Assembly: GCA_008632985.1 (NCBI GenBank)
Contig: QPGO01000063.1
Location: 186,001-250,000, forward strand
DNA: 64,000 nt
Reading direction: 5' to 3'
Source: Psammoneis japonica
Taxonomy: Eukaryota
This document shows, piece by piece, positions 10,520 through 57,570 of the stretch. The notes below the pieces were generated by a model that saw only the letters and a program-made list of their open reading frames with translations, ran no database searches and was not told the origin of the DNA. Position 1 is the first letter of the stretch. The number at the start of each line of letters is the position of its first letter. Position numbers and translations under genes: made by a program.

Positions 10520-10890
10520 GCTGTCGGGGGCAGGACAGACCGTTTTCCGTTCAATGGACCGACGCACGGACGGAAGCAAGCACGGCGGCCGGCCGCGACG
10601 CACGCATCGCGCGCGCACGCACCGGACACGTGCGGCCGGACGGATGCCGGTGGCGGGCGCATGTAGACCGATCGATCGTATCGAGCGTGTAAGCCATCGA
10701 AAAAATCAGAGAGCGAGATTGGTGCGGCAACGAGACTCCCTTTCCTGTCTTCTGCCTTGCCTTGAAGAGGCACAAATCTCACCCACTGCAATCTTGATCC
10801 CTCACCTCCACCAGCACCAGCAGCCTGTTCCGTGGCCTGGGGGAATTGTCTGAGTGGATGACAAGTCCACACGTTTGCTCTGCTCTTTCT
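10520..10890 (+). repeat. Dispersed repeat, copy 1 (copy 2 at ~36795-37050)
   Basis: Shared CTGTC(G/A)GGGGCAGGACAGACC...AAAAAATCAGAGAGC...CTGTCTTCTGCCTTGCCTTGAAGAG...CACCTCCACCAGCACCAG. Confidence 0.85.
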
Positions 10891-12912
10891 TTTCACAGAC
10901 AAGAAATGTCCAAGAAAGACACAGCCAGCTTGCTGTGGGAACAAAATCATTGTCCCAGCAGAAAAGCAGGTGGCTGAGTGGTGTCTTCTCCTCCAGCTTT
11001 GTCATCCTGGAGAGACATGTGCACTGAAATGTCTGTTTCCCGGCACTTCCACATGTGCTCCAAATGTGAAGCATGTCACAAGACAAAAAATGCAAAACAA
11101 GAAACATGAGAAGGTGCCAGAAAAGGCAGCTGAAATTGTTCCATGGGAAATGCCATCATGTCCTGGGATGTTGCTGCTGAGAAACAACATTTTGCAGATT
11201 GTGCAACATTGCTCTTGCCTGCTCAAAAACCGACAACACCATCTTGCCGACAGCAGCAAGGGCTGCAGATGGTGCGCTGACCCTGTCAAGATCCTGATCA
11301 GAGAGCGGGTCCATGTTTGTGCTCCCACCCCTCACAAGCAATGACTCGCTGCTTTGCAACAGGGAGGCAGCACTTCAAAAGCTCCCTGCTGCTGCAAACC
11401 CAAGACACAAGAATTTGTCCAGACACACAGCACACAGCACTTTTTTTGTGGCACACTGCATGACACCCAGCATCCAAACCACAGGAAAGCAGAGCTGCAC
11501 TCTCAATTCAGAGTGTGCTCTGCCAGCAACAGGAATGATGAGATGATGATGGCACGCGGGACAAGCCAGCAAGGCTCTTTTGGCTGGAGAGCTGCCACTT
11601 TCAGAAAAAGGCTCCACAAGTTGCTGGATGGCACCAGAGTGCATGACTCAGACACCCACCAAAACTGAGTCATTTGGCTGCCAGGTGGAAAAATCCATTT
11701 CTTTGCACATGGCACCTGCACACAAAAAGAGTTTCTTTGATTGTGTGCTGGTTGGCACATGTTGTCAATGAACAACACAACTTTTGCCATTGTGTTGTGC
11801 ACTGCAAAAATCAATGATGCTTTGAGTGCCATTTTTGTTTGTCAGTGATGCTGTCCCATGGTGGTCACACCCAACACCATGCTGAGTGATTGTCGCCCAA
11901 GTGCACGCCACATGCACAACTGGAATTTTGCTGCATCATCACAAGCCAGTTTTCACACAGTGCCAAAAATGTTGTGCAAATGGCGGAGGCCTCACAGGCA
12001 ACAAATTCTTGACAAATGTCTTTGAATCTTTTGATGAGCCCCACTTTTGAGAGCAGAACACTGACTTGCTTTTGAAGGCTGTTCAAAAGAACAGCACTGT
12101 GGAGGATGGCACCTTGGAGGCAATTCAAAAATTCCTGTGCACACAGCACTGCAATGTGAGAGCACTGTCTTGTTTGATTTGATGCAGACCAAAGGTTTGT
12201 CTGTCATTTGAGCAGCACATGGGGTGCCAACATGTTGGAGGTGTGCACTCCAAGTCAGCATCCTTGCGGCCTTTTGTCTTGGCCAAAAACAACCCCTGAA
12301 CAGAAACTGTGGTTTGCAACATTTGCCTTGAGATGACACAGCAAGAGCAAATGCACGAAACTTGATTTCTTTCAACCATGGCAGCACACAGCCACAGATC
12401 AATGACACAGGACAAAAGGACAAAGACAACATGTCAACGAACTGCAAGAAGTCAACAAAGACTTTTCACTTCACTTTGTCACATTTTGGGCATCTTGCCC
12501 ACATTTGTCTGACACAAGCTTCAAGCAAGAAAAAATCAAGCAAGTGTGTTGGGTGCTCCAACTGCACAGGTTGCTTCAAACAAGCCACAATTTTTCTTTG
12601 CAGCACATGCTGCAACAGCATGCTGCAATTCCAGATCTGACCAGGGCAGGTGCAGCAGTGGAAAGAAAGTGGGGCATGGCCAAGGAAAAAAGGGCTTGTC
12701 TGCTCTTTGTTTGCATGGGTTGTGTTGTTGGCACCACAGTTGCTCATCATTTTCTGCAAAACATTGACCATGCACTGGATCTTTTGGCAACAGAAAATTG
12801 AGCACCTGCTGCTGCACAAAGGATTTGAAAGAAGGGCCATGTCATCAAGGCAAACATGCTGAAGCTGTGTGTGTGTTGGCTTTGTTCCTGGAGCACTTTC
12901 TTTCCCTCCTTT

Positions 12913-14477
12913 GGGCAGGGTCGGGCAGTCGGGCAGTCAGGATGTCGGGCAGTCGGGATGTCCGGAAGTCCGCCCGAATTTGAAAATGTGTCCCTCGGAT
13001 TTTGGAACGGCATGGGTTGTTCAGTGCGAATGAATTGCTGGGATTCGCAGGATGATCATTGAGGATGTTGGAGGTTGTGGGGACATCCCAAAAAATCAAC
13101 AAATTCCCTGCGACGGGTGCATGGAACTGTTTTTCAGGAGAGCTCGAAAGTGCTGCAAAAATGGGATTGCTGGCACAGCATGTTGAAAAATGTGCTCAGC
13201 TTTGCACAATGCATCATGAACTGTGCACAAAACAACAACACTGGAAGAAACATGTTGAACAATGAGTGCGTTTGTGTGATGCGCCATTTTGGTGACAAAT
13301 TGGAAAAAAAAGAGTGTCTGCGCACCTTGCTGCAGCCCCCAAAATGGCGTGAGATGCCAAACATGACGGTCATCTGCATCGCCGGTGCGGTTGCCATGCC
13401 ACTCTGCCGCTGCAATGCTGGCCCCGGCGGCAGGGCTCCACACACATGCAGGCAATGCAGCAGGCAATGGCCCACACACAAAGAAAGAGACAAGTGGTTG
13501 GTGCTCCCCGCAGGCCTGGTCTTTTTGGGTGTGGGTCAAGCTGGGAGTGGGTGTGGGTGCATGTTGTGTGCCGTTGCATGCTCCAATGCCTGCAGGGCCC
13601 TGCTGTGCATGCAGCGCTCAAAGCCGGTGACGCAGGTGACCATTGCATTTGATGGCTCGCACCATTTTTGGGGCTGTGGCAAGGTGGCGGACACTCTTTT
13701 TTTCCAATTTGTTGCCAGAGTTAAACAGCGCATCGCACAAACGCACTTGTTGTTTGACACGCGACATGTTTTTTTCCAGTGTGACTGTTTTGTGTGCAAT
13801 TCATGATCCGTTGTCTTTGTTCCCAAAGCTGAGCAAAATTTTGAACATGCCGCGCCGGTGACCCCAATTTTTCATCACTTTCGAGCTCTCCTGAAACCGG
13901 ATGGGTTCCAGTCCCAGGTGGGACTTTTTGTGACATTTGCCCCGCAGAATTCTGCGCGCAAGCACTGCAGTTTGTACTCTGGTCAATGGACGCATTTGTC
14001 TTCGACATGAAACAAATGGCCAAGTTTGCAGTGCATGTGTCCCTGTTCGTGCTCGAGGTTTTGGACAACGCGCCTGCCCTGCGCCATTCTTAAGACACTC
14101 GAGAATGGCGTAGAAGAAAAAAATGTTAAAAGTTGTTGAATGGATCGCCTGACAATTGCACTGTGAAATGACACAAAATTTCACCAAAATCACGTAGAAA
14201 TGTGTGTGCGTGACATGCGACGCGATTCAAAAAACCATCGATGTCACAGTTCAGCAGTGCAAGGTCCCACCTAGACCTGGAACTCGTCACCATTCCACAC
14301 GCCTGTTGCAGGGAATTTGTCGATTTTTTAGGATGTCCCCACAACCTCCAATGTCCTCAATGATCATTCTGCAAATCCGAGCAATTCATTCACACCAAAC
14401 AACCCATGCCGTTCCAAAATCCGAGGGACACACTTTCAAATCTGGGCGGACAACCGGTCCGACTGCCCGACTGCCCC
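12913..14477. mobile_element. Non-autonomous foldback DNA transposon with ~470-bp inverted arms; right arm interrupted by a MITE
   Basis: 12920-13125 is the reverse complement of 14290-14477, and 13127-13385 of ~13620-13897; termini carry GGGCAGTC repeats. Confidence 0.85.
13900..14288 (+). mobile_element. MITE family A, copy 1
   Basis: TIRs GATGGGTTCCAGTCCCAGGTGGGAC / GTCCCACCTAGACCTGGAACTCGTC; 4-bp TSD ACCG/ACCA. Confidence 0.9.
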
Positions 14478-14920
14478 ACACGAAAAAGTCTGCAATCACC
14501 AACCACTGAGTGGTCAATGAAATTGCGTGTTGCAGACCTCCCAGTTGGGAGTGGGTGAAAAGATGAGGGGTGGAGAACGTCCACATGCAACATGAGCAAT
14601 GCAAGTGGTTTGACGTTGCTGTGGGGCCCACACACAACTGTTGCTCGACACATGCAAAGGTCACGACACTTTTTTTTCACCAGCAGTTCAAGGGGGGTCA
14701 TCCCTGCGTTTGTCCTGGAATCACCGTGGCATTTGAGCTGGGACATTTGCAGCTTTTGTTTTTCAATGCAAAAATTGTTCATTTTCACCTCCGATTCGCA
14801 CATGAAAACGAGAACATCAGACACCGCGATCAAAGCACGACGATGATGCAATGTCAACACAGCTCAAAAATGCAGTGGTCCATCCTCAAACATCTGATGC
14901 ATGCATGACCTTTGATGCAC

Positions 14921-15309
14921 GACGCGTTCCAGCCCCAGGTGGGACTCCGTGTGACATTTGCCCTGCAGAGTTCTGTGTGTGAGCTCTGCAGTTTGTACTC
15001 TGGTTGATGGATGTGTTTGTCTTTGACATGAAACAAATGACCAAGTTTGTGGCACATGTGTCCCTGTTCCCACTCAAAGTTTTGGACAATCTGCCTGCCT
15101 CTGCCCATTCTTAAGACATTTAAGAATGGTGCAGAAGAAAAAAATGTCAAAAGTTGTTGAATGGATCGCCCAACAATTGCACCATAAAATGACACAAAAT
15201 GTCACCAAAATCATGTAGAAATGCATGTGCACAACATGCGATGCAATTCAAAAAACTGTCAATGTCACAGTTCAGCAGTGCGAGGTCCCACCCAGACCTG
15301 GAACACGTT
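14921..15309 (+). mobile_element. MITE family A, copy 2
   Basis: Colinear with 13900-14288; perfect TSD GCAC. Confidence 0.9.
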
Positions 15310-16399: not shown

Positions 16400-18050
16400 G
16401 ATCCTTTTCAACAAATCATTCACTCCACTCCTGTTGCTGAGTTTTGGTCAAAACAATTGCCAGCAGAAAGTGTTTTTTGACAACAACAATTGTGTTCTCA
16501 ATGTCGCCGTTGACAGTTTCCAAATGGTTTTTTTTGGATTGGCGGCACATCAAACTAACATTCATTCTGTCAGAGGTGCGGAAACCACAAAAGAGTTCCA
16601 AACTGTCTCCTTTGGGAATGCCTGCCCATCAGAGAATGGCAAGTGCAAGAGACACAAGCGTGGTTGGAGCTGGGACAACTGCAACTCTTGATTTTGATTC
16701 CATGAACTCTTGATTCTAAATTGGCATCTTGGAATCATGTTTGGACAGCAATGGCAACCACCACTGCCACAGAGCAACTCCCACAGTCATGTGTTGGAAT
16801 CATGCAAATTGCAGCCATCACTCCAGCACATCCCACAGTTGCACGCAGAGAACATTCGACATGCCACTCATTGTTGATGAATGTAGAAACACTCTAGAAC
16901 TGCCGCAGCAGTGTGCATCATTGCATGTGTGTGTTTGCATCGTGCATTGAGAGCCATTGCTGCTCAAGCAACTCAGAACCTTTGTCTCTGTGTCAACATC
17001 ACTTGCTGTGTCAGCAACAAACAGGGCTGCAGTCTCAAGAACACCTTTCTGACCAAGATGATGCCATTTTCCCTCCATGCAGCACTTGACAAGTCTGCCA
17101 ATGTGCCCTTCAACATTGTTGTTGAAAAAACAAAAGCAAGGCAATCAATGTAGATGCAGTTGCATGACTTGTGATCACCTTGGCTGTCATGTCTTGAGAC
17201 CATGTGCCAAGCGACATCACTTTCCCTTGGTGGAACCACCCTTTGCTTGAGTTCCCATTCAGCAACTGAGCCACCCAACTCATCGCGGCCCGGGGTGGGT
17301 TCATGCCTCAATGTAAAGCCGCCCATGATTTCTCTGTCTGTTTGAAGCCCCTTGCAGTTGCATTCATCACAGATGCTGTGATTGCCACAGTGGTGAGGGA
17401 TGACAGATTTGATCATTGACCATGCCTTCTGTTCTTGAGCAGCAAACCTGATGCTGTCCAGTGCAGTCTTTGGTCTCTCAGATTCTGAATCACTTTGACC
17501 TGCACCTGAGCCACCAGAAGCACTGGGAGCAGCATCGCCATTCTTCTCCTTGCATGAGTGGCCTTCTTCTGACAACATGTGAACAGCCTCTCCATGACTC
17601 CTGCTGTGCCATCCATTTCTCTTGTGTTGCTGAGGAAAGAGTTGTTCCCAATCCTTTGGTGAAGAGACACCCTTTAGAATCCTTTGCTTCACAGCAATTG
17701 CACCGGAGTTCTTCACCTGCCAGGGTGACAGCACAGTGGCATTTCCAGTGGCAGTTGTCTTTCTGAAGAGCGCAGCTGAGTTGGAGGTGCCTTTGAGGGC
17801 CAACAAGACATTGGACTTGTGGAGTTCTGGAAAGCCACCATGTTGCAGCACCTTCAGCACAAGGTCACTGTCCATCCATGCGCACTGCGACACAGCCAGG
17901 AAGGCAGTGATGAGAAGCCTTGTGGCCTCTGCAATCTTCATCATTGGTTTGCTGTTTTTGTGATGGAAAAATTGCAGTGCATCTGTCATGGAGTGGAAGG
18001 AGCCCGGACAATGCACAGACTTGTGGGGGGTCCCCATCAATTGATGACTG
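16400..18050 (-). pseudogene. Possible Mutator-like transposase relic
   Basis: VIPHHCGNHSICDECNC resembles the H-x-x-G-x-H-x-x-C motif of Mutator-like transposases; heavily decayed. Confidence 0.3.
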
Positions 18051-18089
18051 ACAAAACAAAGCAGATTCTTTTGGCAGATCATTCGGTGC

Positions 18090-18300
18090 AGATCTGAGGC
18101 CAATGAGAGACAGTGGTCTGTGCCTCTCTCCTGTGCAAGTGGGGGGGGTGTCTTTGCAATCTGCTTCAATGATGCTGCCCACATCGCAGAAGCAGTGCAC
18201 AAGTCTACAAGCACCACATGAGCTGCAGCAAGCTCACTCTTTTTCTTCATCAACGTTGCGCTGCACATTGATGAGACGAGAGAGCGAGTTTTTGCTTGCA
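18090..18300 (+). repeat. Dispersed direct repeat (other copy ~26515-26705, itself between ~170-bp duplicates at 26340-26510 and 26730-26900)
   Basis: Shared CCAATGAGAGACAGTGGTCTGTGCCTC...CAATCTGCTTCAA(T/C)GATGCTGCCCACAT...GCAGAAGCAGTGCACAAGTC. Confidence 0.8.
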
Positions 18301-18745
18301 CTCGCCCTCTGTCCCCTCAGCATTGATGGCACCCGCTCAATGCCATGGTGACATCAACTCGTGGGAGTGCCACTGGCACTTCTGCTTCTGCATCGAGCAC
18401 TCTCACGCTCCTGGCTGACTGACACACTGCGGCCATCTTGGCAAAGTGCAGTCACGGTCTTCTGTCTGCTCTCGCTGAGACTCCTTCCTGCCTTCTGGAG
18501 TGACCGTTTCGAAACAGTGTGGCGGTCTTTGTTCGGACCTGCAAGCGACGACGTCGCCATCGCCTCCGGCCTCTCGGCCACTGCCGACGGTCCGCTCCTC
18601 CTCACGGACAATTGCGCGCGTCTGCGCACGCCAGTGGAATGCCACGCAAATCAGCCCTCTGTGCTTTCCGGCGGAGCTCACGCGGGTTCGAATCCCACCC
18701 GCCCGCGCGACGGTAGCCCTTTCACGTGGTCTCAACCCGTTGTTA

Positions 18746-19189: not shown

Positions 19190-22100
19190 CCACATCCTTT
19201 TCACATGACACACGAAAGCAGTCCTGGTCCCCCAAGCCAGCAGCTGACTGCTTTGAGGCCCCCCATCCCTGGTCTGGTCCTTCGGCGGCTTTTGCATGCT
19301 CTCCTGGATTGCAGTGCCCTCCATGATGCCACCCACAGAACTGGTGGATCTCACAGCATCCACGGCAGGCACTCTTGTTGCAAGCAAGGCCGTCTTAGAA
19401 CAGCGGGCCTCAATCCCATTGGGTGCACCCGTGACGTGCTCCAGCTCCAGGTGGGACCTCGCACTGCCGGACGTTGACATCAACAGTTTTTTGGATCACA
19501 CTGCATGTTGTGCACGTGGATGGCCATGTGTGACATTCTATGAAATTTTTTCATGCTCCCTGTTTTGCAAAGCCAAAGGCTTTCCATTTTCAACATTTGT
19601 GAGAATGAAAATGCACTGGGGGTGTGTTGTTCTTCAATGTCTGTGGAACACACCCGGGCAAACTGTTGATGAGATGCACTTCAAGTGTGGAGGAGGAGGT
19701 GCATTTGTAAAATTGCTCTTTTTCTGTTGGTGATCATTTGCATGTTTTGTTTCTCACAAATTCATTGTGGAGCTCACACGCAGAATTCTGTGGGCCAAAT
19801 GTCACACGGAGCCCAACCTGGGACTGGCACCCATCCCACGAATCTCTCTGATGAGCAATTGGTGGCCAAGCTGTGGTATGCCATCCTTTGGATGTTCCAG
19901 CTGCCTTCATGCTTTGACCTTCTGGTGGGCCAGATCTGGGTCACTGACATCACCTTCAAGCAATTTCAGGAGAGTCTCGCAAGCATGTGCCAGGACACCG
20001 TCCCCTCCTCTGCCATGTGGGACAAGCAGTTGCTGCTCAAGGAGTGGTTTGCAGCCACAGCAGCCTTTCCAGCAGATGCAACAGTTGACCCAGTGCCTTG
20101 CACTCAGTTTGCCAGTTTGCTGACCATGTCCAACCCCAGCGGCTCTGGCTCCAGCACCCCAGTTTCGTCTGAGCTTGCGATGGTTGATCAAGATCTGGCA
20201 TTTCAGTTGCATCGGGAGATCAAATCCTTGCAGAGCACAACAAGTCTCTTCAAGAAACCCATCTGGACCATGAGTCAAAGGCCTTTGATGGCATGCATCC
20301 CTCAGACTGTCACCTTGGCCTTCGTCCAGTGGAGCGCTGCTTTGATCTGTGGCACCATTGTCCACTTGCTAAGAAAAAGCTGCACACCTCCAAATGCTTT
20401 GCACTCAACCTGTTCACAGTCAAATCCATTGATCCCTTGCTGGCTCAATGCTCCCCAAAACTGGTGAGCCTTGAAAAACCTGAACCCCCCTGTTTGCTCA
20501 TCACAGCGCAGGTGTTGCAAGCCCAAATGGCTGGCAGTGACATCACCAGCTGCAGCAAAGGCAAGGCCAGCAATGGCAAAGGACTCATGAGCCAATTCAC
20601 CAGATTTTAAGCCACCTCCCACCTGTCCACCCCTGCAGCACACCCCACTCAATGCTCAGTTGCAGTGGCTTGCACCCCCACTTCACCAGCCACACCGGCT
20701 GCTGGCCCATGCCAGCCACCCCCTTTGGACGTGCCCCTGTTGCCCAGCATCCTTCGCCCCACCACCTGCAACCTCACAGGTGACAACATCCCCCATTTTC
20801 AGATGGCTGCATTGGGCCAGCATCACTTGCCTGCAAGGTGGTGCAGTGCTCATAACCTGTGGTCTGGGTCCAACCACTGGGTGCCTGACAGATCCCAGCT
20901 GCACACACAGCCCCCTCTCTCCCAACGAACCACATGTTGTTTGCCAACAGCTCAGCTCCCAGCAATCAGTTTGACCTGCCAGCCCTGGCTCCACTGGCCA
21001 CCGTGCCTTGGACCACTCCAGCGCAGCCTCCAGTGGCTCAATTTGTTGTCACCCCAGCCCCAACCATGGCCACAGCCAAAGACTGGTCATTTCCGTCTGG
21101 TCAGCAGCCAGCCACACCTGGCACCAAGGGTCACAGATCCTGGCGTGCCTGCTGGCCTTCTGAACTGCTCCTTTCAGGTTGCTTGGCTGGATCGCCTGCT
21201 GCAGCAGCCCCTGGTGCCCATGAGTTGTTCCCGGCTTGCATCAACTCAGCCTTTTGTGACGCCATCTTTGGGCAATCAGCTGCTGTGGCTGCCACTTGCC
21301 TGTCTTGGATCATCTCTCAGGAGTGCCTCACAGCGCCAGCTCAGTGGGAGCATCCTTCAGCACCTCCTTCTTCCACTCTGAGCCCTTCCAGGCTTGGCAG
21401 GAGGGTCGGTGGACCTTTGCTTTGGCTCCTGCAGCCACCAAACTGGACATGACATTTATGGTCTTTGCTCTGCTCCTGACACTTCTGGAACATTCTGGTC
21501 CATCAAGGATCCCATGTTCTGGCTTGTCCATCTCTGCCAAGGAGCTCCTGCTGGCACACTTTTGGTGGCTCCTGGAGGTGGTTTTCACAGTTGACAACCT
21601 CTCTCCACTCTTCTCCGCAGAGTGCCTCCTCTTTGCTCCTCTTCAGCTCCTCAATCTTTTGCTGCACACTCACAAGGTGCACAAACAATGGGAATCAAGC
21701 AAGGTGCATCGTCTTGCCCACTCGTTTCACTTCTTGTGCTGCCTTGTGGAGCTGCTGGGCCTGTTTTTTGCTTGGTCCTCACAGGACGGGCTAGTCCATC
21801 TAGTGTCCAACTCTCATGGCAGCTGCTCTGAACTGCCTGCTCTGAAGCCAACTCTGCAGCACAGTGGAGCACGCCAAAAGATTGTGGCCATTCTGGCCCA
21901 CTGGACAGAATGCACTGTCGCCCCATTTGAGACAAATCTGAATTCCGACATGTGGTTGCACTCTGCCCCGCCCAACGTGGTGTTGGCTCCCTTGCCAACA
22001 GCAGCACGCAAGCACTCTCTGGCTGCCCCCACCAGAACTGCAGACCCACTCTCACAGAAAGGGAAGAGGCTCAAGGAAGGGTCTCTGAAGACCCGCACTG

Positions 22101-36794: not shown

Positions 36795-37050
36795 CTGTCA
36801 GGGGCAGGACAGACCATTTTCCTTTCCTTGGGTTGAGCGTGGACCACGCAAGCCATTGAAAAAATCAGAGAGCAAGATTGGCAAGCAACGAGACTCCCTT
36901 CTCTGTCTTCTGCCTTGCCTTGAAGAGACACAAATCTCACCCACTGCAATCTTGTCCCCTCACCTCCACCAGCACCAGCCTGCTGTGGCCCTGGCCTGGG
37001 AATCATCTGAGTGGATGACAGTGAAGTCCAGCATGTGTGCTGCTCTTTCT
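36795..37050 (+). repeat. Dispersed repeat, copy 2 (see 10520-10890)
   Basis: Alignment by eye. Confidence 0.85.
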
Positions 37051-37631: not shown

Positions 37632-38592
37632 GATGTGTTCCAGCCCTGGCAGGTGGGACTCTGTGTGACATTGTGCCTGCAGAATTCTGTGTGCAAGCTC
37701 CGCAGTGCAAGAACTCAACTGACAAACATGTTGGTCTTTGTTGTTGAATGAACAACCAAGTTTGTGGTGGAATTGTGCCTGTCCGTGCTCAAAGTTTTTG
37801 AACATCAATCTGCCCACACCATTCTTAAGATGTTCAATTGAGAATGACACAGAAGAAAAAATGTCAAAAGTTGTTGAGTGGGTGACAGAAGTTGAAGAGA
37901 GGCAAAAATGGGTGGAAGAAAACAACAACTCCTTGCTCTGCTGTCTAAACAGCAGATGAGTCTCCATGCAGAGACCATTGCAGGAGCCAAAAGACATGTG
38001 TTGTGATGTTGGTGCTGCTGTTGTTGTTCTTGCAAGCCCCATGTGGCTTGAGTGCAAACTGCACTCTGCACAATGTGCAGGACTGAGAGCACTCACAACT
38101 GTGCATGACAAACTGAAATCTTGTTCAAATCCTGTCACTCCCCAGTTTGCTTGAGGAGTCCACAGAGACAGACTCAAGATCAGATTGGCTAAAGGTCTTG
38201 GGATTGAAGCTCCAAAATGTGAGGGGACAAAGGAGGTTCCGGATCTGGGAGCAACCCCAGTGCTTGCTGAGAACATTGGCAGCATTGCAAGAGTCTTGAA
38301 TGAAGTGAGACTTGAGGAAACTGGAGGCAATTGCCTCATGCACACAATGGAATGAGAGGGCAGTGTGTTGTTTGTGTAAGTTGGATTGTGGGACAGTGGC
38401 ACTGTCCACAACCAACTTGTTGTCCCCAAACATGTGTCATGTGCCCAACAACTGCACTGCAAAATGACACAAAATTCCACCAAAGTCCTCATGCAGAAAT
38501 GCATGTGTGAGATGCAACATGTGGCATGATCCAAAAAACTGTTGATGTCACAGCTCAGCAGTGCAAGGTCCCACCTGGAGCTAGAGCTCATC
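37632..38592 (+). mobile_element. MITE family A, copy 5, containing a Copia fragment
   Basis: GATGTGTTCCAG..AGGTGGGAC ... GTCCCACCTGGAGCTAGAGCTCATC; perfect TSD TGAA. Confidence 0.88.
37883..38439 (-). mobile_element. Copia (CoDi-like) 3' fragment: RNase H end, PPT and 255-bp LTR
   Basis: MFGDNKLVVDSATVPQSNLHKQHTALSFHCVHEAIA..NAANVLSKHWG; PPT GGGGAG (38143-38138) abuts LTR TGACA...TGTCA (38137-37883). Confidence 0.85.
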
Positions 38593-38599
38593 TGAAGAC

Positions 38600-44500: not shown

Positions 44501-45100
44501 CTGAAGATGGTTGGGGTTAAGGGAAAGCTCATTGAAATCATTGAAGACATTTGCATGGTGCACAATGGGAGTTTTATCTGGCCTCAATGATGTGCTGTGG
44601 GCCCCTTCCTTTTGCTTGCCTGTGTCAGCTTCAGTTTTGGAGTTCATGACAGCTTCAAAAAATTCCATGGACCTTGATTTGAGGGACATGTTCCCAATTT
44701 TTTTCATGGACCCTCTTGAGCAACTCATCTGCCTGAGGGTTTTGGAAGCTGAGTGCAGCTTCATGTTGCACCTTGTTCATGTCTTGGGCAGGTGTGTGAT
44801 TGCACAAGGCACTGATGGCATGTCCCAAGGAGTTCTTTCAGAGGGAGTTGTGAGCAGAGCCAGGATGCTTTTGTTCACACCCTTCACTTGGGGGGGGGCA
44901 CTGCCCAAGCCCCAAGGCTGTTCGATTGGGTCTGCTCATGGGTGGGATCACCAACCCTGGAGACAATTGCCCCTTTCAACTGGCTCCAAAAGGGCCATGA
45001 CATTGCAAGCCAGGAGCATCCAGAGCATGAAGTCATTGAAATGCCTCTTTTCAAGTCTGGGACGTGGACCCCAGTGGCAGCAAGGGCAGCAGGCATCTGG
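38600..45100 (+). mobile_element. Decayed YR-type retrotransposon 3 (ORF1 plus internally deleted RT/RNase H), interrupted at ~41.9-43.8 kb
   Basis: ORF1 EECATLRFADHPSMASECVKVLATNSG; RT start SGLNDVLWAPSFCLP..DLDLRDMF fused to RNase H end LHLVHVLGRCVIAQGTDGMSQG. The YR domain itself was not seen. Confidence 0.7.
41920..43800 (-). mobile_element. Internally deleted Copia relic (gag-like region plus RNase H at ~42420-42020)
   Basis: KTGVQPTVLTSLSEAKFVAA..MALCLCSILDKL..TLICED..HIDICHFALQDWVEKDLVQL..NCRDTLTKNL. Confidence 0.75.
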
Positions 45101-48100: not shown

Positions 48101-48341
48101 AGCAGCTGGCACTGGCAATGACAGCCAAACTCAGTGCCCGTGCCAAGGGGGTGTTGAGGGAGAGATGTCTTCACTGGCAGTCATGTCTCCATGCAACAAA
48201 TTATCCATCACAGATGACCCTCTTCCAGCATGCAAAGCTTGAACAGACCCCAATGTCATGTGCGTGCACCAAGCAATGAAACAACAAGATCACAAGGAAT
48301 TTGTCAAGGCAACGTGCAAAGAGGTCAAGGGCCAAATGAAG

Positions 48342-49346
48342 AACAGAAACTTCACCACAGTTCCAAGATCAACATTGACTGACAAAAGGAAGACACTTCC
48401 AGCTGTGTGGCACCCAGTCTGCTGTTCCACAGAGGGTGGGTTATAGAAACAAATGATCTTCAGCCACACCAGTGGTGCCACAATCAAAAACACTGAACAC
48501 TCAACTGCTTTTGTTTTTCTCTCTCCCACCATTCTTCAGCTGGTCATGTGGTGAGTCAGTTTCCAACTGATGTGCACATGCATCTGACAGTCAATGGGGC
48601 AGATTCTTCACTGCACCTGTTCCATGCAGACCTTGGTGGCCACCAGTCTGCTGTTCCACAGTCACCTGTGGGTGGAGCAGAGAATGCCAGGCTGAGTGTG
48701 ATGGGCTGGGACAGTTTGCCAGTTGTTCCAACCCTTGTTGCATCCCAGGCCAACAAAAGTCCACAGCATCTGCAAGGACTTGATTGGGGTGGGACGGGCA
48801 AAGCCTGCTGAAAGTTGCCCTGCTGCAGGCACTTGGTTCAGGATTGGAACAGAAACTTACCACAGTTCCAAGATCAACATTGACTCACAAAAGAAAGACA
48901 CTTCCAGCTGTGTGGCACTTGGTCTGCTGTTCCACAGAGGGTGGGTTGCAAAACCAAGAAATGATTTCAACTGCAGCAGTGGCGCCACAACAAAAACAAT
49001 GAACACTCAACTGCTTTTGTTTTTCTCTCTCATGCCATTCTTTAGCTGGCCATGTGGTGAGTCAGTCTCCAACTGACACGCACATGCATCTGACAGTTGA
49101 CGGCAAATTCTTCACTGCACCTGTTCTATGTAGACCTTGGTGGCCACCAGTCTGCTGTTCCACAGTCCCCTCTGGGTGCAGCAGAGAATGCCAGGCTGAG
49201 TGTGATGGGCTGGGACAGTTTGCCAGTTGTTCCAATCCTTGCATCCCAGGCCAACAAAAGCCCACAGCATCTGCAAGGAGTTGATTGGGGTGGGACAAGC
49301 AAAGCCTGCTGGGAGTTGCCCTGCCACAGGCACTTGGTTCAGGATT
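48342..49346 (+). repeat. ~505-bp tandem duplication (48342-48847 / 48848-49346) spanning the Copia/YR-element junction
   Basis: Both copies run AACAGAAACTT..CCACAGTTCCAAGATCAACATTGAC ... CACTTGGTTCAGGATTGG. Confidence 0.92.
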
Positions 49347-52300
49347 GGAGTCTGGGGTGGGTGTGGCAGAACCTGGGTTGAGAGAAAATTCCCCATGCAT
49401 GAGCACAGCAGAGGCAAAGGTGTGCATGAGGGGGGGTGCTTGGGCATGGAGGCACCTGAGCAATTTGTCAGAGTGCCAGCAACCAACCACGCAGATGACA
49501 CTGGTGTCAATGCAAGTGCAGAGCAAGGCCATGGTGCCACCAGCCTGGAGACTGTGGGCCGAGATGTCACTGGGGACAAACCACATGTGTGGTTGGTGGC
49601 AATGGCAGGTGAGTAAAGCACAGAGAGGGGTCCCTGGTGGTGACATCAGCCCACTGGCTGTTGATGAAAACAGAGTGCAATGGCATGTCCGGCGGGGCGT
49701 TGTGGAGTCGCAAGTGCTCCATGCAGTGACAAAGTGCCCCATTGGGGCAAACTGTTGGGTCTGGCACATGGTGGTGACTGACCTTTTTGCCAGGGACAGC
49801 ACATTCTTCTGCTTTGTGTGGGCAAGTGTGGCAAAAGTGGCAGTGTGCAGGTGTTTGAGAGGCGCTGTCAAGGTGCACAGCAGGTGCTGCAGCGCCTGAC
49901 AGAAGGAGACATTTCAAAGTCAAAATGGGTCTTGTCACAAGCCTGGTGCCAAAGCCGCATGCTCACCAGGATGACGGAGATGGAAGAAACCTTTCTCTGG
50001 CATGTCAGCAACTGCTTGCTCCATGGCCAAGCATGTTGAGGTGGCAATGGCTTGCTGGTGCCAAACTGGTGTGAGTGGCACTGGCTTGACTCATGCGGGC
50101 CTGCGTTGCACCAACCTTTTGATTGCTGTGAGAGGTGTGACAACTTGAGTTGCATGGGTCAGTCAGGTGGTGATCTTTGGCCCCCACACTGGCCATTGTC
50201 TGACCCACCACTCAGAGGACATCCTCCACTGTACAAGATCAGACAGAGCCACCGCTGGGTGCAATGCATCCTTTGCAACACCAAACCATGACTTCCACAA
50301 GGAACTGGGTGGGATCCTCAATGTCAAGGAGGAGGGGGTCAACCCCCAAGGAGTTGCAAAATTCTTGCCAAAGGTCCCAGGCAGAGTCACAGCATGCAGC
50401 ACATTGAGGAACAACACCGGTGTGGGCTGCTGCTTGTGCAGTGCTGAGATCACAAAGGAAAACATCGCAGTCTCAGGTGGCAGAGCCACCATGGCCACGT
50501 CTGGGGACATTGATGGTTAAAATGAAGCAGAGACAAGGGGTCAGCCAGGTGCCAAAAGTGTGATGCATTGTTGGTCATGCCATTGGAAGGGCCCAGAATG
50601 CAGCCATGGGCAGCAAGGTGTCAAAAGTGGAGCTGGTGCAGAGCAAGAGGCACCATGGGCCGTGGGCAAGCGGCTGGGTCATGCATGGTTGCGGAGCCAT
50701 GGCGCAAGCATGACAAGGATGGGTGTTGTCCCTGACAGTGCCCACGGTGTGCACTCATGCATGTCAACATTCTGTGCAAGCACTTCTTGGTGGGAGATGA
50801 TGCCCATGTGCTCAAGATTGCTGTTGGTGCGATCACCGTGTGGGTTTTCTCCTGGGACACAAGCTGATCCTGCATGTCCTTTGGAAATTTCTCATGCCAC
50901 ACTGCGGGATCCCTGTTTGGGGTGAACCAGACCCTGCCCATGCCAGGACCAGCTGCATCCATGGAGCCTGCAATGGCAAGCTGGTTGGGCACATTTTTGG
51001 CACGCCGAGTTGGGCGGGCAATCACGTCATGCATGAGAGTCTCAAGATCATCAAGTTGGGCTTGCATGGATGCATTGATGTGCACATGCAAGTGGTTGCT
51101 TCAGAAAAAACTGGTCTGCAACAAACCAAAGAGACTGTGCCCCCCTGGGATTGCTGTGATCATGCTGCGCAGCTCTCTGAGTGCTTTGTGCCAAGTCTTG
51201 ACAGAGACACAGCAGACGTGATGGAGATTCTCAAAGATCTCCAGGAGTTGCACCACTTGGTGTGGTGGGAGCATGATGGTCTGGTGAAGGGTGTCAATCA
51301 CCCAACCAAGGACTGTTGTGATGGTGCTCTGTGCTGCGTCCCCCCTGTCAAAGCTTCTTGACCAAGATGGGCTCCTTGTGGCACCATGCATCAGCAGGAG
51401 CAAGCAAGCTAAAGATCTTGTTGACAGCTTGCATGAGGACGTGCCATGCCGTGTGGCACCACCAATGTGAGCCCTGCACAAGGCCAACAAAATCATCAAC
51501 ACAGACATCCATGCAGTTGACGGGCTTGTGCAGCTGCACATGTGTGATGTGTGGAGGTGGTGGCAAGAAATCATCATGGCATTGCAGCTGCTGTGTAGCC
51601 CCACAATCATGAGGAGGTGCTGCAGTCTCAGAATTGTGCTCCAGCCAGTGTGGTCATCTTTGACAGGCCTGGGGTGCAGTGGTGTGTTGCTTGTCAACCA
51701 GATCAGCAGTGTTGGTCTCAGTGGCTGGGCAGAAGGTTGGCAGAAACTCCACCCAGCACATTGGCAGGCTGAGTGGGATTGCTGCAAGTGGTGATCCCAC
51801 CTGGATTGGGGACAAGTGCTGCCAGTGCAAGAGCATTGTCAGGTCAAAGTTGGGTGTGACAAAACCCATTGAAGATGTCAATCTTGTTGATGTGGATGGA
51901 CCATGCCTGGGGTTTGCATGATGGATGCGATGCAAAGGTGTTGCAAGGCCTGGTCAAACTGCATGGCCTCTGGTGGTGCCAATCTAATGGTGTCCTTGTT
52001 GACACCCCAGAAGCTGAGGTTGACAACAAGCTGAAGGCATTGTTTGTGCTGGGGGACATTGTCCAAGGGTGAGAAGCAGAGTCCCAACAGATCCTTGACT
52101 GGCTCATGCAGCAGAACTTGCCAAAAACTGTTGTCACAGAAATTGGCCATTTTGCCCAGACAAATTCTCTGTGCTCATGTGTGGACTTGTGGGGACCCCA
52201 CACCGCTCACATGTCAAGGAGGGTGGCAGACCAGGGATCACTCACTGTGCTGGGGACCTGATGTGGTGGAGCTGGTTGAGGTGCGGTGTGACTTGTGGTG

Positions 52301-54224: not shown

Positions 54225-54261
<37 letters not shown>

Positions 54262-54342
54262 ACCCAACTGTCAATGGCAGATTCTTCACTGCACCTGACT
54301 GTCAATGGCAAATTCTGTGCTGCACCTGTTCCACGCAGACCT
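48918..54342 (-). mobile_element. Decayed Ngaro-like YR retrotransposon 4 with split direct repeats
   Basis: A repeat ~54120-54342 = ~48965-49137; short B repeat GTCTGCTGTTCCACAG at ~48922 and ~49150. RT KIDIFNGF, PLSLPMCWVE, DVCVDDFVG, TVLGWVIDT; RH MDAAGPGMG; YR ISAHSLQAGGTMALL..VGCWHSDKLLRCLH. Confidence 0.9.
54227..54260. repeat. (TG)n microsatellite
   Basis: About 17 TG units inside the A1 repeat. Confidence 0.95.
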
Positions 54343-56774
54343 CTGTGGCAGATGAAATCAAAGCGGGGCATCCCGACCCATGCTGTCAAGAAGGAAATGG
54401 AAGGCAAGATTGAACACAGACAGATCAAGGATGAGAGAAGGGATCTGCTGCAGCAAAACACATGCCCCAGTGGCATCCCGGAACTCAACACACATGCCAC
54501 TCACCTCAGCAGCAGTGCAATTGGCACACTGAGCAACTGGATCATGCTTTGGCTTTCCCACAGGCTCCAGCAGAGTGCAAGATTTACATGCAAATGCTGA
54601 AAGGATTTGAAATCAACAAAGGAAATTGGATTTTGTGCTGCACCTCAATCGGACTGACAAGCCAGGTGAGCATGAAACAAGCACCTGGTCTCAACAAGTT
54701 GACAAAAGAGCCAAGTTTCACACAGTCCAAGGTTGATGAGTGTGCATTCCATCGAGGCAAGATGATGCACTCACTGCACTCTGATGACAGCTTGCCAGCA
54801 GGACCTGACAAGAAGAAGACAGATCAAATCTACAAGGACCCAAAGGCTGCTGAGCTGAACATTGCAGCAGAGGGAGACATGGAAGATTTCCTTGGTGTCA
54901 ACAATGAAAAGAAAAGTGATGGTGCAGCACATCTTGCACAGCCACACCTCATTGATCAAATGCCAAATGACCTGAAGCTTGATGGTGATGACGCAAAGCC
55001 CAAGGATGCTCCAGCCTCATCTTCAAAATTGTCATCCAGGCACTCTGACTCAGAACCCTTTGATGGACACTGCAATTGCAGATCCATTGTCAGCAAACAA
55101 AACCATCTAGAGAAGGCCACAAGGAGCAACATTGCTTGTGTCATGCACCAGTGTGCACGATTTGCAGCAAATCCTGGGGTGGAACATGGTCAAGCACTCA
55201 AATGGTTTGGACAACATCTCAAAGATGCAAGAGATGACAAAGGCACCATGCTGAAACTTCAAGAAGACAAAGACTTGAAAGCACACATCAATGCCAACTT
55301 CAGCGGCACCAACTGGGGCCCTGAAGAGGCAGCTGCTGATCATGACACTGCCATGGTTCATCAAGACATGGACAAATTGTCATGTGTGCAAGATGTCCAA
55401 TCCTTTGGAAATCTTGGCTGCAAACAGAGATTGCATTGGGTTCAACCAAGAGTGAGCACACCAGCTCATCATGTGTGTTGAGAAGTGCAATGCCTCTTGT
55501 GGAGCTGCTCAAGGAAATGAAGCACAGCAGCTTCCCAGTGCACACCTGCAAGCCAACAGTTCATTGTCGCGTGTTTGAGGACAACAACAGAGCTCTGGAA
55601 ACTGCAAAAATCTGTGGGTGCTGTCCAAGAACCAAACACCTGAATGCAAAGCTGCACCACTTCAGAGACTGTGTGTCCAGCAGGGGAGAAACTTCCGCCC
55701 ATCCTGTCGACACCAAGGAGCAACTCACCAATTGTCTTGCAAAGCCAGTGGGTGCAAACACCCTGCTCTTGTTGAGTCCACCGGTGATGGGGTTGCAGGG
55801 CTTGAACAAAGTCCGCTGGTGTTTGGCTGAAGCATGTTCAGAGGGCAATTGCCCAATGTCCCAAATGAGAGGGAGTGTCAAACAAACAACCTCACACTCG
55901 AGTTTGCATCATGTGAATGCATCCAGTCATGAAGACATTGCAAACATTGAGCAATGACCCCTGTTGATTGATCTCATTGACTGCAATTCAAAAGGAGCTT
56001 AAAATGTTCAGAATTCCTCCATTGAGTGTTGAAACTGATCTGCCCAATGCTCTGTGCAAATGCAGAATTGCTCTGCCACACTCACAATTTGTGAACTTGC
56101 TTCGCCACAACAGCCGAGCTCTTTGTCAGCCCAAATGCCTTGGTGAGTGCCAATGGTTGGCAGCTGGGCACTTTGGCAGAAGACCAGACTGAGTTGAAAA
56201 TTGCAAAAGTGTTGGTCAGCACACTGGCAAGTCCTTTGTGTCTGAGTCATTGGAGCCATCTGCGGTGCGCCAATCATGGCTCTGCTGCAGCGCAATCAAC
56301 TTTGCAAAGACTTGGAAAAAAGACAGGGTTCAAGTTTTGTGAAGAGTGTTTGCAGAGCCACGTGTGCACTCAACATTTGATTGGCTGCAGTGGCAGTGGC
56401 AAGTGAGCACATTTGTGTGTTTGTGGCTTGCAGGGCGACAACACTGAGAGCCCCGAAGCAAGCGGCAGTGACGCCAAGAGTCCTTGGCAGACTGGCGAGC
56501 TGCAAGACCATGATGAGCCCAATTTTGAGCTAAAAAGTGATGAGTTGGTGGCAGGAGCAAAGTGGCTTGTGGCTGAGAGGAGAGTGGGCAGTGCAGCGGC
56601 TGTTGGTTGTTGTGTTTGTCGATTTCTCTTTTTTTGGCATGCAACGACTGTTGATGGCTGACGTCAAAGTTTGTGGTGCGGATTTGTCACGGAAACAAAT
56701 CCATCCATTGTGTGGAATTGGCGGGTGGCGAAAACCCTCATTTCTTCAATTCCGTCGATTCTTCTCATTCCCTG

Positions 56775-57570
56775 CGCATCCGACACGATGAATGTGCCGA
56801 TGACGTTACATACAACCGAAGGCTTGGTGCAACACACAGCCACTGATAAGAGTCAATGTGTCACGGCGATGTGTTACAGCCTTTAAATGTCACAAATTGC
56901 GTGACAAAAATAACCTTTTGTCTGCATGCATGCTGCATTATGAATTCATAGCGGAGTGGTTCATCTCGCAACCATTAGGCAGGAGGCCAGGGGTTCGAAA
57001 CCCGAGTGGGAGTTGTCTGCAGCAACGTTGATCACTGTCGAACGCGTAAAACTCTGTGCAGTTCTGTATGTTCCTTCGTACGTACCCACACTGTTCCGCC
57101 AAAACCGTGCAGTGTCAGTACACGTTAGTAAAGAGCCGTATGGACGCGTGATACATGGGGAGGAGTGCAATATACAGCTACTAATAAGAGTTTTAATGTA
57201 TCACGGCGACGTGTTACAGCCTTTAAATGTCACAAAGGGCGTGACAAAAATAACCTTTTGTCTGCATGCATACTGCATTGGTGACATTCGATGTGAAGCT
57301 GTAGCCTGCCCGCCTGCCGGTGCAATGTGTGCGTGCATCCGACACGAATGAATGTTCGATGACACGTCATCCCGAAGGCTGGGTGAGTGACGGACATTGA
57401 AAGCTGTACAGTACTGTAGCCCATGCCTGCCGGGCAATGTGCATCCGACACATGTGAATGTCCGATGACGCGTCATCCCGAAGGCTTGGTGACATTGAAA
57501 GCTGCTGCTGTATCCTACTCAATGTATATGTGATTCTATCCGACACGTATGAATGTTCCGATGACACGTG
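56775..57570 (+). repeat. Degenerate ~105-bp tandem repeat, about 4 units, first unit interrupted by the TRIM
   Basis: ATCCGACAC..TGAATGT..CGATGAC core at ~56778, ~57337, ~57443, ~57538, followed by CCGAAGGCT in the first three units. Confidence 0.8.
56828..57277 (+). mobile_element. TRIM (miniature LTR element) carrying a tRNA-like Pol III promoter
   Basis: LTRs 56828-56937 and 57166-57277 (TGCA...TGCA); PPT GGGGAGGAG at 57157-57165; 4-bp TSD TTGG; empty site GGCTTGGTGACATT at ~57483; internal A box TAGCGGAGTGG (56949) and B box GGTTCGAAACC (56992). Confidence 0.85.

Follow-up and report, generated by a model that had tools for sequence, protein, structure and literature searches.

A TpA-poor block between ordinary genes

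The window, a 64,000 nt stretch of a Psammoneis japonica chromosome, contains a main hypermutated block of degraded repeats (10691–56530; 45,840 nt) flanked by genes that are unaffected. On the left lies a minus-strand gene for CAF-1 subunit A (402–2414, with a GT..AG intron at 357–434) whose best named relatives are from diatoms, and on the right is a minus-strand gene fragment of the sulfotransferase family (63440–64000). Within the block TA occurs 174 times against the 2855 expected from base composition (observed/expected ratio, O/E, 0.061), and the lowest count among 200 mononucleotide shuffles of the same sequence was 2762. CG is also scarce (566; O/E 0.197), while TG (5189; O/E 1.83) and CA (5175; O/E 1.79) are nearly equal in number and roughly doubled. 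In three flanks the TA ratio is 0.50–0.60 and the CG ratio 0.91–1.04. Relative to these flanks, each kilobase of the block has lost 29.8 TA and 49.1 CG and has gained 26.1 TG and 51.1 CA, such that the combined deficit (78.9) is close to the combined surplus (77.2). No shift is seen for AA (1.18 in the block, 1.23 in the flanks) or AT (0.88 and 0.92).

The edges of the block are sharp. The final TA of the left flank is at 10690, and a repeat terminus (family D12; 10691–10893, plus strand) that is 86% identical to 36850–37053 begins at the next nucleotide. The longest run lacking TA follows from there (3032 nt, 10690–13722). At the right edge TA reappears at 56531/56807. The left edge of the TpA deficit falls on a repeat start, and the neighbouring genes retain their TA. 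These measurements agree with an earlier note, made from the sequence alone, that described near-absent TpA and scarce CpG over ~46 kb with sharp edges; its hand counts (2 TA and 7 CG in 20041–20640; 9 TA and 19 CG in 4441–4740) proved exact.

Two features of the window were absent from that note. Loss of TA is uniform over sub-blocks of the main block, whereas loss of CG is patchy (O/E 0.04–0.67 by sub-block). Furthermore, an isolated second island at 6302–7586, located between two ordinary gene regions, has 3 TA where 68 are expected, with none in its core (6768–7586) and a CG ratio of 0.15. This island is single copy by depth in the contigs of sequencing run X1 (60–70), and both it and the stretch at 10.7–12.7 kb are single copy at a likeness of at least 80%.

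A recognizable transposon protein is missing from most of the block. When 77 intact polyproteins, all with PF13976 and PF07727, were used as tblastn queries, the matches covered residues 1–1233 and 763–1713 in Copia order, and this gag-pre-integrase plus RVT_2 arrangement identifies the affected element as a predicted Ty1/Copia LTR retrotransposon. A plus-strand remnant of the N-terminal to middle part (45662–48500) matches residues ~1–900 of the intact relatives and has TGY or CAY in place of Tyr codons. It is collinear with a plus-strand remnant of the RT/RNase H part (54265–55792), which was found by tblastn and by a weak Pfam RVT_2 match at 54435–55478 (27.5 bits on the mutated ORF, under the 31.6 cut-off). 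The two remnants are either one element split by ~5.8 kb or two truncated copies. A short C-terminal Copia fragment is present on the minus strand at 42051–42431 (tblastn, best E 5e-7). We sought an LTR pair for the Copia element in the window and found none. A tandem duplication on the plus strand (48341–49349; ~505 nt, 89.6% identity) has copies that differ in part at TA/TG, TA/CA and TG/CA sites.

The region 12944–15308 belongs to a very high-copy repeat family, with direct repeats at 13905–14287 and 14926–15308, inverted arms at 12944–13126 and 14293–14471, and a summed contig depth of 2,500–44,000 against ~60 in the flanks. Here the TA ratio is 0.085 while the CG ratio is 0.65. The label 'transposon' rests on repeat depth for 12.7–20 kb and is assumed elsewhere; the parts shown to be foreign are those of Copia and of the high-copy families. 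The earlier description of the depletion as restricted to transposable elements is borne out in part, by one Copia element and several repeat families, and it goes beyond the evidence for the larger part of the block, where no such protein is recognizable.

Direction and sequence context of the change

To read the direction of change at the protein level, the 77 intact Copia polyproteins served as a reference, which provided 532 sites with conservation in 80% or more of the sequences. The 26 conserved Tyr sites are represented in the window by TGY (12), CAY (10), TAC (1) and other codons (3). Replacement of Tyr by Cys or His at 22 of 26 sites, as the earlier note had seen, is accompanied by other A:T>G:C transitions: Ile to Thr or Met (ACA 4 and ATG 4 of 23 sites), Leu to Pro or Ser (CCA 5 and TCA 2 of 47) and Val to Ala (GCA 4 of 25). 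Conserved Arg sites display CG-type loss at 15 of 35 positions, with His (5), Gln (4), stop (3), Cys (2) and Trp (1) as the outcomes.

The change is specific for TpA rather than for any A, again as first noted. At second codon positions, A>G is found at 12 of 26 TpA sites but at only 5 of 139 CpA, GpA and ApA sites (Fisher p = 7e-8); the latter comprise Gln or His to Arg (0/46), Glu or Asp to Gly (3/53) and Lys or Asn to Arg or Ser (2/40). At first positions, T>C is frequent before A (Tyr to His, 10/26) and rare before T or G (2/56; Phe to Leu 1/26, Cys or Trp to Arg 1/30). Both outcomes, TpG and CpA, are present in similar numbers among the Tyr codons and over the block. The data support a second, region-confined process acting on both strands beside CpG decay.

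The same signature occurs elsewhere. In a metagenome Copia protein (P0175), 26 positions that are Tyr in an intact relative 80% identical to it are occupied by Cys (13), His (11), Arg (1) and Tyr (1). The intact Copia relatives, in contrast, are neither as TpA-poor nor Tyr-free, with TA ratios of 0.59–0.80 and ordinary Tyr content.

The surviving TAs carry additional information on context. YTAR accounts for 99 of the 174 TAs left in the block and RTAY for 10, compared with 20.6% and 30.2%, respectively, of 1121 TAs in intact Copia loci. This pattern implies a putative preference, on each strand, for T-A-Y, and the mixed flank classes are intermediate, as such a rule predicts. The outcome at a site, predicted to depend on its 5′ neighbour, shows only a trend in that respect (after R, CA 15 and TG 12; after Y, CA 7 and TG 13; p = 0.24).

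Change in place and support from reads

Comparison of DNA copies points in the same direction. Among 40 of the 1060 differences from other genomic copies, which provide small samples for direction at the DNA level, TA or CG is found in other copies where the window has TG or CA, and at one place two neighbouring TAs of other copies are TG and CA in the window. In the four-copy family D6, TA, CA and TG all occur at one site. Copies within the window form TG/CA doublets at 89 of 710 aligned YR pairs, compared with 12 of 699 for an AC/GT control, and differ 75 times as CG/TG or CG/CA. The adjacent direct repeats at 13905 and 14926 are 44 events apart, 30 of them at YR sites.

A same-locus X1 contig differs from the window at 16 positions in 2326 nt of block and at 2 in 10,370 nt of flank, making differences 36-fold commoner inside the block. 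Six of the 16 are CG versus TG or CA, three have TA in the contig and TG or CA in the window, two make up one TG/CA doublet, and five are of other kinds. Differences at TA/TG/CA sites, both between neighbouring duplicates and between the window and its same-locus contig, show that mutation continued after integration. TpA conversion therefore acted in place, after integration and duplication.

The substitutions are backed by reads. The X1 k-mer contigs (1.5–7.2 kb) have no differences from the window over 1–8581, and those over 10691–13016 carry the TA-free sequence with only 3 extra TAs at a depth of ~60–66, equal to that of the flanks. Since X1 may be the sample behind the window assembly, this support is read-level and non-independent. 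An artefact, in which modified bases (5mC at CpG and something at TpA) were miscalled as TG or CA in a long-read assembly, could account for the positions at which the window has CA or TG and the X1 contig has CG (5 sites) or TA (3 sites), and these mismatches could include residual consensus errors or another haplotype. Read contigs at single-copy depth nevertheless carry the TA-free sequence, the unrelated metagenome protein has the identical Tyr pattern, and miscalls on mixed strands would be expected to generate CG as well, yet CG is scarce. We regard an artefact as very improbable. A reading without any mutator, by which ancestral transposon composition, selection against TA or GC-biased gene conversion shaped the block, gains from the mild scarcity of TA everywhere, including the flanks. 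It is opposed by the TA and Tyr content of the intact relatives and by the destruction of codons for conserved Tyr, Ile, Leu and Val residues; biased gene conversion, moreover, would strike AA and AT, both of which are unchanged. Almost no weight is left for it.

Candidate agents and known systems

The block probably consists of the remains of silenced transposons, on a nuclear chromosome of the diatom, that were rewritten in place by two context-specific transition processes. One would be ordinary decay of methylated CpG to TpG and CpA. The other, faster than CpG decay and close to saturation, would turn TpA into TpG or CpA, strike both strands equally, halt where the repeat begins and leave A and T alone in all other contexts. 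On the attacked strand it would favour TpA followed by a pyrimidine, such that R-T-A-Y is lost most and Y-T-A-R least. Its agent may be a DNA base modifier directed by chromatin or by foreignness, which would act in genome defence by ruining Tyr, Ile and other codons. Among the candidates we tentatively put first, at somewhat less than even chances, a TadA/ADAT2-type adenine deaminase, whose product I (from A) is read as G.

Because TpA reads the same on both strands, a change of A to G after T looks identical to one of T to C before A on the opposite strand. This symmetry would hide an attack on the thymine instead, for example TET/JBP-type oxidation to 5-hydroxymethyl- or 5-formyluracil that mispairs with G, with the same targeting and footprint; the survivor pattern is equally readable as an R-T-A preference. 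The 5-hydroxymethyluracil of dinoflagellates has been reported to favour TpA and TpC, although a literature search on this preference found no paper. We know of no thymine-modifying enzyme or 5-hydroxymethyluracil in diatoms, and 5-hydroxymethyluracil is itself only weakly mutagenic. Authors studying a comparable process in Bigelowiella natans prefer adenine deamination, without a test, in the available text of their preprint (bioRxiv 10.64898/2026.01.13.699255). Thymine attack is judged unlikely, while retaining more weight than any other rival to the main reading.

Far less probable is ADAR-like A-to-I editing of retrotransposon transcripts or dsRNA that is fixed by reverse transcription, in which case copies would arrive already mutated. 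To our knowledge, ADARs are confined to animals. A Copia retrotransposon is among the affected elements, the left edge falls on a repeat terminus, and ADARs prefer a U immediately 5′ of the A that they edit (bioRxiv 10.64898/2026.01.13.699255). However, editing of sense RNA would leave its trace on a single strand of the retro-copy and yield only TA>TG, whereas the sense strand has TG and CA outcomes at 12:10, TG equals CA over the block, and duplicates that differ at TA sites show change continuing after integration. On these grounds this route is judged very unlikely. Error-prone patch repair of the Pol-eta type, set off by T:G mismatches from 5mC deamination, had been among the candidates of the earlier note, and it would explain why TA loss and CG loss share one block. 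The Pol-eta mutational motif is WA; its ApA half is spared (2/40, versus 12/26 for TpA), and TA loss is complete in the high-copy family where 65% of CG is retained, so the extent of TA loss does not follow the number of CpG deaminations. Pol-eta is disfavoured as well and is given a very small probability.

Several known systems resemble parts of this pattern. RIP likewise produces in-place, near-saturating, dinucleotide-specific transitions that wreck the coding capacity of repeated or foreign DNA. It converts C to T, chiefly at CpA, and thereby creates TpA (as given in part of PMC2621366). The diatom block loses TpA and gains CpA and TpG, the opposite direction, which excludes RIP and upholds the earlier characterization of the process as its reverse. 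Decay of methyl-CpG accounts for the CG>TG/CA component, for which both the CG ratio of the block and the Arg losses are those expected. CpG methylation in diatoms is by DNMT5 (cf. parts of PMC9998398). Such decay cannot remove TA. In metagenome Copia loci L008 and L009, where CpG decay appears alone, CG ratios are 0.20–0.39 and TA ratios 0.95–0.97. TA loss in the high-copy family, where most CG remains, is separate from CpG decay, and 5mCpG deamination was rejected as the whole explanation, as the earlier note had argued. In animals, APOBEC and ADAR similarly represent host-driven deamination that hypermutates selfish elements, but APOBEC yields C>T/G>A rather than A:T>G:C, and ADAR acts on RNA. 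Deaminases of the TadA/ADAT2 type, like the DNA base editors engineered out of them, fit in their A>I chemistry and 5′-T preference. The natural TadA site, U-A-C-G, agrees with the putative T-A-Y preference of the block. A natural DNA-directed, chromatin-targeted activity is unproven for this type.

The closest match is found in B. natans, for which Mettrop et al. describe, in the available text of a 2026 preprint (bioRxiv 10.64898/2026.01.13.699255), how foreign (viral) DNA, once integrated, undergoes de novo hypermutation of TpA to TpG and CpA. The process is therefore already described, contrary to what the earlier note had supposed. In that text, the changes appear during vegetative growth in a subset of mutation-accumulation lines, at ~1e-7 to 1e-6 per site and generation; reverse transcriptase and DDE domains are over-represented in clusters poor in TpA and rich in CpA and TpG; and ADAT2 is named as a candidate only. 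As far as the available text allows comparison, both systems convert TpA exclusively to TpG and CpA, with no other context affected and on both strands, are limited to foreign or silent DNA in sharp contrast with the remaining genome, and show raised local polymorphism (27-fold in B. natans; 36-fold between contig and window here). Judged by its footprint, the second process in the diatom block appears to be the same kind of targeted hypermutation.

The two cases differ, within the same portion of the preprint, in substrate (transposon debris here, giant-virus and virophage inserts in B. natans) and in saturation (TA O/E 0.06 versus 0.45 for the B. natans NCLDV region). Strong CpG decay accompanies the diatom pattern and is unmentioned in that text, and the RTAY>>YTAR preference is unreported in its main text. 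De novo change was observed in the B. natans lines, whereas in the diatom block the one hint of it is the 36-fold excess of same-locus differences over the flanks. The hosts are also distant, a stramenopile here and a rhizarian there. A literature search for TpA hypermutation in diatoms found none, and the footprint of a TpA mutator has so far been reported once, in that unrelated alga. It is conceivable, at somewhat less than even chances, that diatoms own a DNA editor, guided by chromatin or foreignness and with a per-strand T-A-Y preference, that removes TpA from silenced transposons in place, outpaces methyl-CpG decay and is homologous to the B. natans system. If so, genome defence by TpA editing would be of ancient origin in the SAR supergroup (which unites stramenopiles, alveolates and rhizarians); it would mirror RIP and amount to adenine base editing of DNA by a natural enzyme.

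A bounded block stripped of TA

Between positions 10691 and 56530 of the window, the dinucleotide TA is nearly absent and CG is scarce. Specifically, this block contains 174 TA where 2855 are expected (observed/expected ratio, O/E, 0.061) and 566 CG (O/E 0.197), together with 5189 TG (O/E 1.83) and 5175 CA (O/E 1.79). The lowest TA count in 200 shuffles of the block was 2762, and the longest run without a TA spans 3032 nt. When measured in sliding 2-kb windows, TA O/E is 0.00-0.13, CG O/E is 0.04-0.67 and TG and CA are each 1.5-2.4 across ~11-56 kb, whereas the flanks exhibit TA values of 0.36-0.68 and CG values of ~0.9-1.2. The dinucleotides AA, AT, GA, TT and TC are the same in the block as in the flanks. 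Per kb, the block differs from the flanks by -29.8 TA, -49.1 CG, +26.1 TG and +51.1 CA. The combined shortfall of TA and CG is thus close to the combined surplus of TG and CA, indicating that the lost dinucleotides reappear as TG and CA. An earlier note had described near-absent TA and scarce CG over ~46 kb; these values confirm that description, and its hand counts of both dinucleotides were exact on recount.

A second TA-free patch, an island of 1.3 kb at 6302-7586, carries 3 TA where 68 are expected. It is CpG-poor, is flanked on both sides by ordinary gene regions, has no Pfam match and is single copy by contig depth. The process is therefore able to hit a very small target while sparing sequence a few bases away.

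The outer flanks carry ordinary eukaryotic genes, namely one for CAF-1 subunit A (402-2414, minus strand) and a sulfotransferase fragment (63440-64000, minus strand). The named relatives of the CAF-1 subunit A ORF are diatoms (Cylindrotheca, Nitzschia, Seminavis and Skeletonema) at ~40% identity, and its best match is at 59%; the window therefore belongs to a diatom whose own proteins that database lacks. Directly beyond the right edge of the block, at 56855-57279, an 85-nt repeat recurs at a spacing of 340 nt with 94% identity, and the 500-nt bin at 57501-58000 is unusually rich in TA (46), in stark contrast to the stripped block nearby. Further right, a 1052-aa open frame (59253-62408, plus strand) is mostly a tandem array in which a 186-nt (62-aa) unit recurs 11-12 times with 95-97% identity. 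This frame matches no Pfam family, and the array gives rise, as by-products, to many overlapping ORFs on either strand. On the plus strand of 57000-64000, TG (O/E 1.35-1.47) exceeds CA (O/E 1.0-1.18), an asymmetry that probably derives from the composition of the repeat gene and is unrelated to the block.

For a tblastn search of the window, we took as queries 77 intact Copia polyproteins no shorter than 1250 aa, drawn from the 120 homologues listed. These queries revealed two collinear Copia segments on the plus strand (45662-48500 and 54265-55792) and a Copia fragment on the minus strand (42051-42431). No LTR pair around the Copia sequence was found on comparison of 43500-45800 with 55600-57000. 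A Pfam scan covered 350 stop-to-stop ORFs, of which 200 were 110 aa or longer and 150 came from the 197 with 75-109 aa in 6-57 kb; for the block it yielded only a weak RVT_2 match (54435-55478) and one zinc-finger match at chance level. Two long minus-strand ORFs, one with zero homologues at E<=0.001 (37422-38726) and one with two weak matches among 1.84 billion representatives (16976-18316), are probably by-products of absent TAA and TAG stops, since TA-free DNA lacking these stops will carry many spurious long ORFs.

Repeat families are present inside the block. When the depth of read contigs is added up across pieces that share at least 80% likeness, it reaches 2,500-44,000 at 12.7-15.3 kb and 19.3-20 kb, compared with ~60 in the flanks; at the same likeness, the island is single copy, as is the stretch at 10.7-12.7 kb. 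The proposal that the mutation is restricted to transposable elements therefore holds for the Copia segments and high-copy repeats, and the remainder of the block offered neither a Pfam domain nor a useful homologue. The term 'transposon block' is accordingly established for part of this DNA and presumptive for the rest.

The TA-free sequence is real DNA and not an artefact. One public sample, run X1, contains the stretch (0.82 of sampled words), and its read-derived contigs match the window at depth 60-67 with 0 differences over 1-7049, 0 over 7048-8581 and 18 over 8902-13016, the last of which includes 2.3 kb of TA-free block. Over those 2.3 kb, the contig regains just 3 TA. The length, depth and accuracy of the X1 contigs are unlike noisy long-read output, which argues that TA loss is not a sequencing artefact; the assembly may itself derive from X1, whose library type is not on record, so this support is read-level rather than independent. 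All 18 differences lie within 10549-13016, in or just before the block, and none occurs across 8.6 kb of left flank. At the same locus, 16 positions separate the contig from the window within 2326 nt of block, compared with 2 within 10,370 nt of flank. The 16 comprise 6 of CG versus TG or CA, 3 where the contig has TA and the window TG or CA, 2 that form a single site with TG in one sequence and CA in the other (a TG/CA doublet), and 5 others. The 18 differences represent haplotypes that the mutator has driven apart or else consensus errors left in the assembly.

A second run, X2, is entered as 'DNA?' on record. One of its contigs skips a 78-nt GT..AG intron (357-434, minus strand) near the 3' end of the CAF-1 subunit A gene, from which we infer that X2 is RNA-derived. 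X2 gives zero cover at 10673-14007 and 6671-7337, and its contigs at 14.7-16.7 kb differ from the window.

Direction and sequence context of the changes

To read the direction of change, we used 532 window codons, each aligned to a residue for which 25 or more intact homologues were available and at least 80% of them agreed. At 26 conserved Tyr sites, the window now has TGY at 12, CAY at 10, TAC at 1 and other codons at 3, in agreement with the earlier claim that Tyr codons have become Cys or His through changes on both strands. Other residue classes are kept at 64-92%, except Arg (0.43) and Ile (0.22). Ile sites have become ACA (4) and ATG (4), Leu sites CCA (5) and TCA (2), Val sites GCA (4), and Arg sites His (5), Gln (4), stop (3), Cys (2) and Trp (1). 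These are the losses predicted if TA or CG is lost.

The codon table itself allows the neighbouring base to be controlled for. Second-position A>G change is found after T (Tyr) at 12/26 sites, compared with 0/46 after C (Q, H), 3/53 after G (E, D) and 2/40 after A (K, N), a contrast with p = 7e-8. Likewise, first-position T>C change is found at 10/26 sites before A (Tyr) and 2/56 before T or G (F, C, W). TpA is the target; its two outcomes are equally common on one coding strand, and ApA is spared. The suggestion that TA rather than any A is attacked is thereby upheld, as it is by the unchanged frequency of AA. Furthermore, other genomic copies, recovered as read contigs, have TA or CG at sites where the window has TG or CA. 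At one spot, two neighbouring TAs in the other copies are TG and CA in the window, and in a four-copy repeat family (D6) TA, CA and TG are all found at a single site.

The 174 surviving TAs in the block reveal an extended motif. YTAR accounts for 99 (57%), compared with 16% of flank TAs (n=555) and 20.6% of those in intact Copia loci (n=1121). In contrast, RTAY accounts for 10 (5.7%; ATAT 0, GTAT 1, ATAC 2), compared with 31% and 30.2%, respectively. Relative survival is 0.19 for RTAY, 0.63 for YTAY, 0.97 for RTAR and 2.76 for YTAR. These values are near multiplicative, as expected if the two strands are attacked independently at T-A-Y (R-T-A on the other strand). In family D6, surviving TAs in CTAG context are ancestral by parsimony, indicating that survivors are resistant sites and not new ones. 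The corresponding prediction for the choice between TG and CA at Tyr codons gave only a non-significant trend with the 5' neighbour (p = 0.24).

The same footprint exists outside this genome, as indicated by the Tyr>Cys/His pattern of a 701-aa metagenome Copia protein (P0175), which is also independent evidence that the footprint is no artefact. This protein has 1 Tyr in 701 residues and is the one such case among the 120 Copia homologues listed; nine loci are related to it, none of which is its own contig. Relative to an intact locus with 80% identity (L002), its 26 Tyr positions have become Cys (13), His (11) and Arg (1), with 1 Tyr kept, and 55/136 differences can be reached from the intact codon by a single TA>TG/CA change. 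P0175 is also an apparently intact, Cys- and His-rich frame called on a hypermutated Copia element; in TA-free debris without TAA or TAG stops, gene callers will emit long false proteins.

Mutation in place and its separation from CpG decay

Editing of an RNA intermediate might have produced the TpA changes before integration. Such editing would mark the sense strand only and be finished at integration, and this is argued against by copies that differ in place. Among copies within the window, 89/710 aligned YR-YR pairs are TG/CA doublets, compared with 12/699 for the AC/GT control, an excess expected if ancestral TA or CG was resolved independently in each copy. Of the 44 events that separate the adjacent direct repeats at 13905-14287 and 14926-15308, 30 are at YR sites (11 doublets, 4 TA versus TG/CA, 14 CG versus TG/CA and 1 CG/TA), and a 505-nt tandem repeat (48341-49349) has 36 differing events with 15 at YR sites. 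The mutations arose in place. Together with the same-locus differences from the X1 contig, these data speak for a locally raised mutation rate, possibly still active, in line with what was reported for the corresponding region of Bigelowiella natans.

TA loss is separate from CG loss and faster, outpacing 5mC decay. Among sub-blocks, TA O/E is uniform (0.03-0.09), and CG O/E ranges from 0.065 (37-45.6 kb) to 0.65 (the high-copy family, 12944-15308). Intact Copia loci have TA O/E of 0.6-0.8 and CG of ~1.0; if its ancestors resembled these, the high-copy family would have lost ~90% of its TA but ~35% of its CG. Two metagenome Copia loci (L008 and L009) have CpG O/E of 0.20-0.39 with normal TA (0.95-0.97), indicating that the two processes can occur apart. 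They exemplify CpG decay by itself in a different organism, a useful contrast to the block.

Candidate agents and comparison with known systems

The data establish a TpA-specific, strand-symmetric A:T>G:C process on chromosomal DNA, separate from CpG decay and restricted to silent repeat DNA, even when that is as short as the 1.3-kb island. This supports the earlier reading of the block as TpA>TpG/CpA mutation. We rejected GC-biased gene conversion as an explanation, and likewise selection against TA and an inherited composition. The specificity and saturation of the process, together with its abrupt stop at the repeat boundary, point to a targeted enzyme rather than passive chemistry. Pol-eta, one candidate of the earlier note, has the motif WA, which does not fit because ApA is spared. 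The leading candidate would be a DNA adenine deaminase with a T-A-Y preference, which agrees with the natural TadA site, U-A-C-G. Alternatively, the thymine of TpA could be modified instead of the adenine. Whether by an adenine deaminase or otherwise, the block might be recognized through heterochromatin marks, methylation, small RNAs or repetitiveness.

The T-A-Y preference is a constraint that every candidate enzyme has to satisfy, and a natural DNA adenine deaminase, if that is the agent, would be of interest to the base-editing field. The effect ends at the element boundary and leaves neighbouring genes untouched. Tyr-free, Cys/His-rich transposon proteins and TA-free islands provide a cheap diagnostic for genomes and metagenomes.

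Among known systems, fungal RIP makes TpA, and the process acting on the block destroys it, so that 'the reverse of RIP' is an apt description. The block is not APOBEC-like, as the wrong base is changed, nor ADAR-like, as both strands are hit after integration. The closest system is that of the chlorarachniophyte Bigelowiella natans (Mettrop et al. 2026, bioRxiv 10.64898/2026.01.13.699255), which overtakes the earlier claim that such a system was undescribed. According to the preprint, 231/302 new mutations in B. natans mutation-accumulation lines fell in an integrated NCLDV and a virophage; with a single exception these were A>G or T>C, always at TpA, and they arose in a subset of the lines at a rate of ~6e-7 per site per generation. 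The preprint also reports 27-fold SNP density in the region and 124 TpA-depleted, CpA- and TpG-enriched clusters enriched for reverse transcriptase and DDE domains, and it proposes an ADAT2-like protein as a candidate; its main text names neither diatoms nor CpG.

In the literature outside subscription journals, this preprint was the only account of TpA-directed hypermutation that our search returned, and none concerned diatoms or stramenopiles. Such a mutator, acting on foreign DNA, had been reported once, in a single chlorarachniophyte. The block adds motif and rate information and a second major lineage, the diatoms, a group that matters greatly in ecology and has members amenable to genetics. 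The block shows every sequence-level feature of B. natans TpA hypermutation, but differs in host lineage, saturation, accompanying CpG decay and extended motif. The B. natans footprint is mild, whereas the diatom block is an end state with nearly all TA gone over 46 kb; as far as our searches reach, it is the first diatom case and the most extreme footprint seen.
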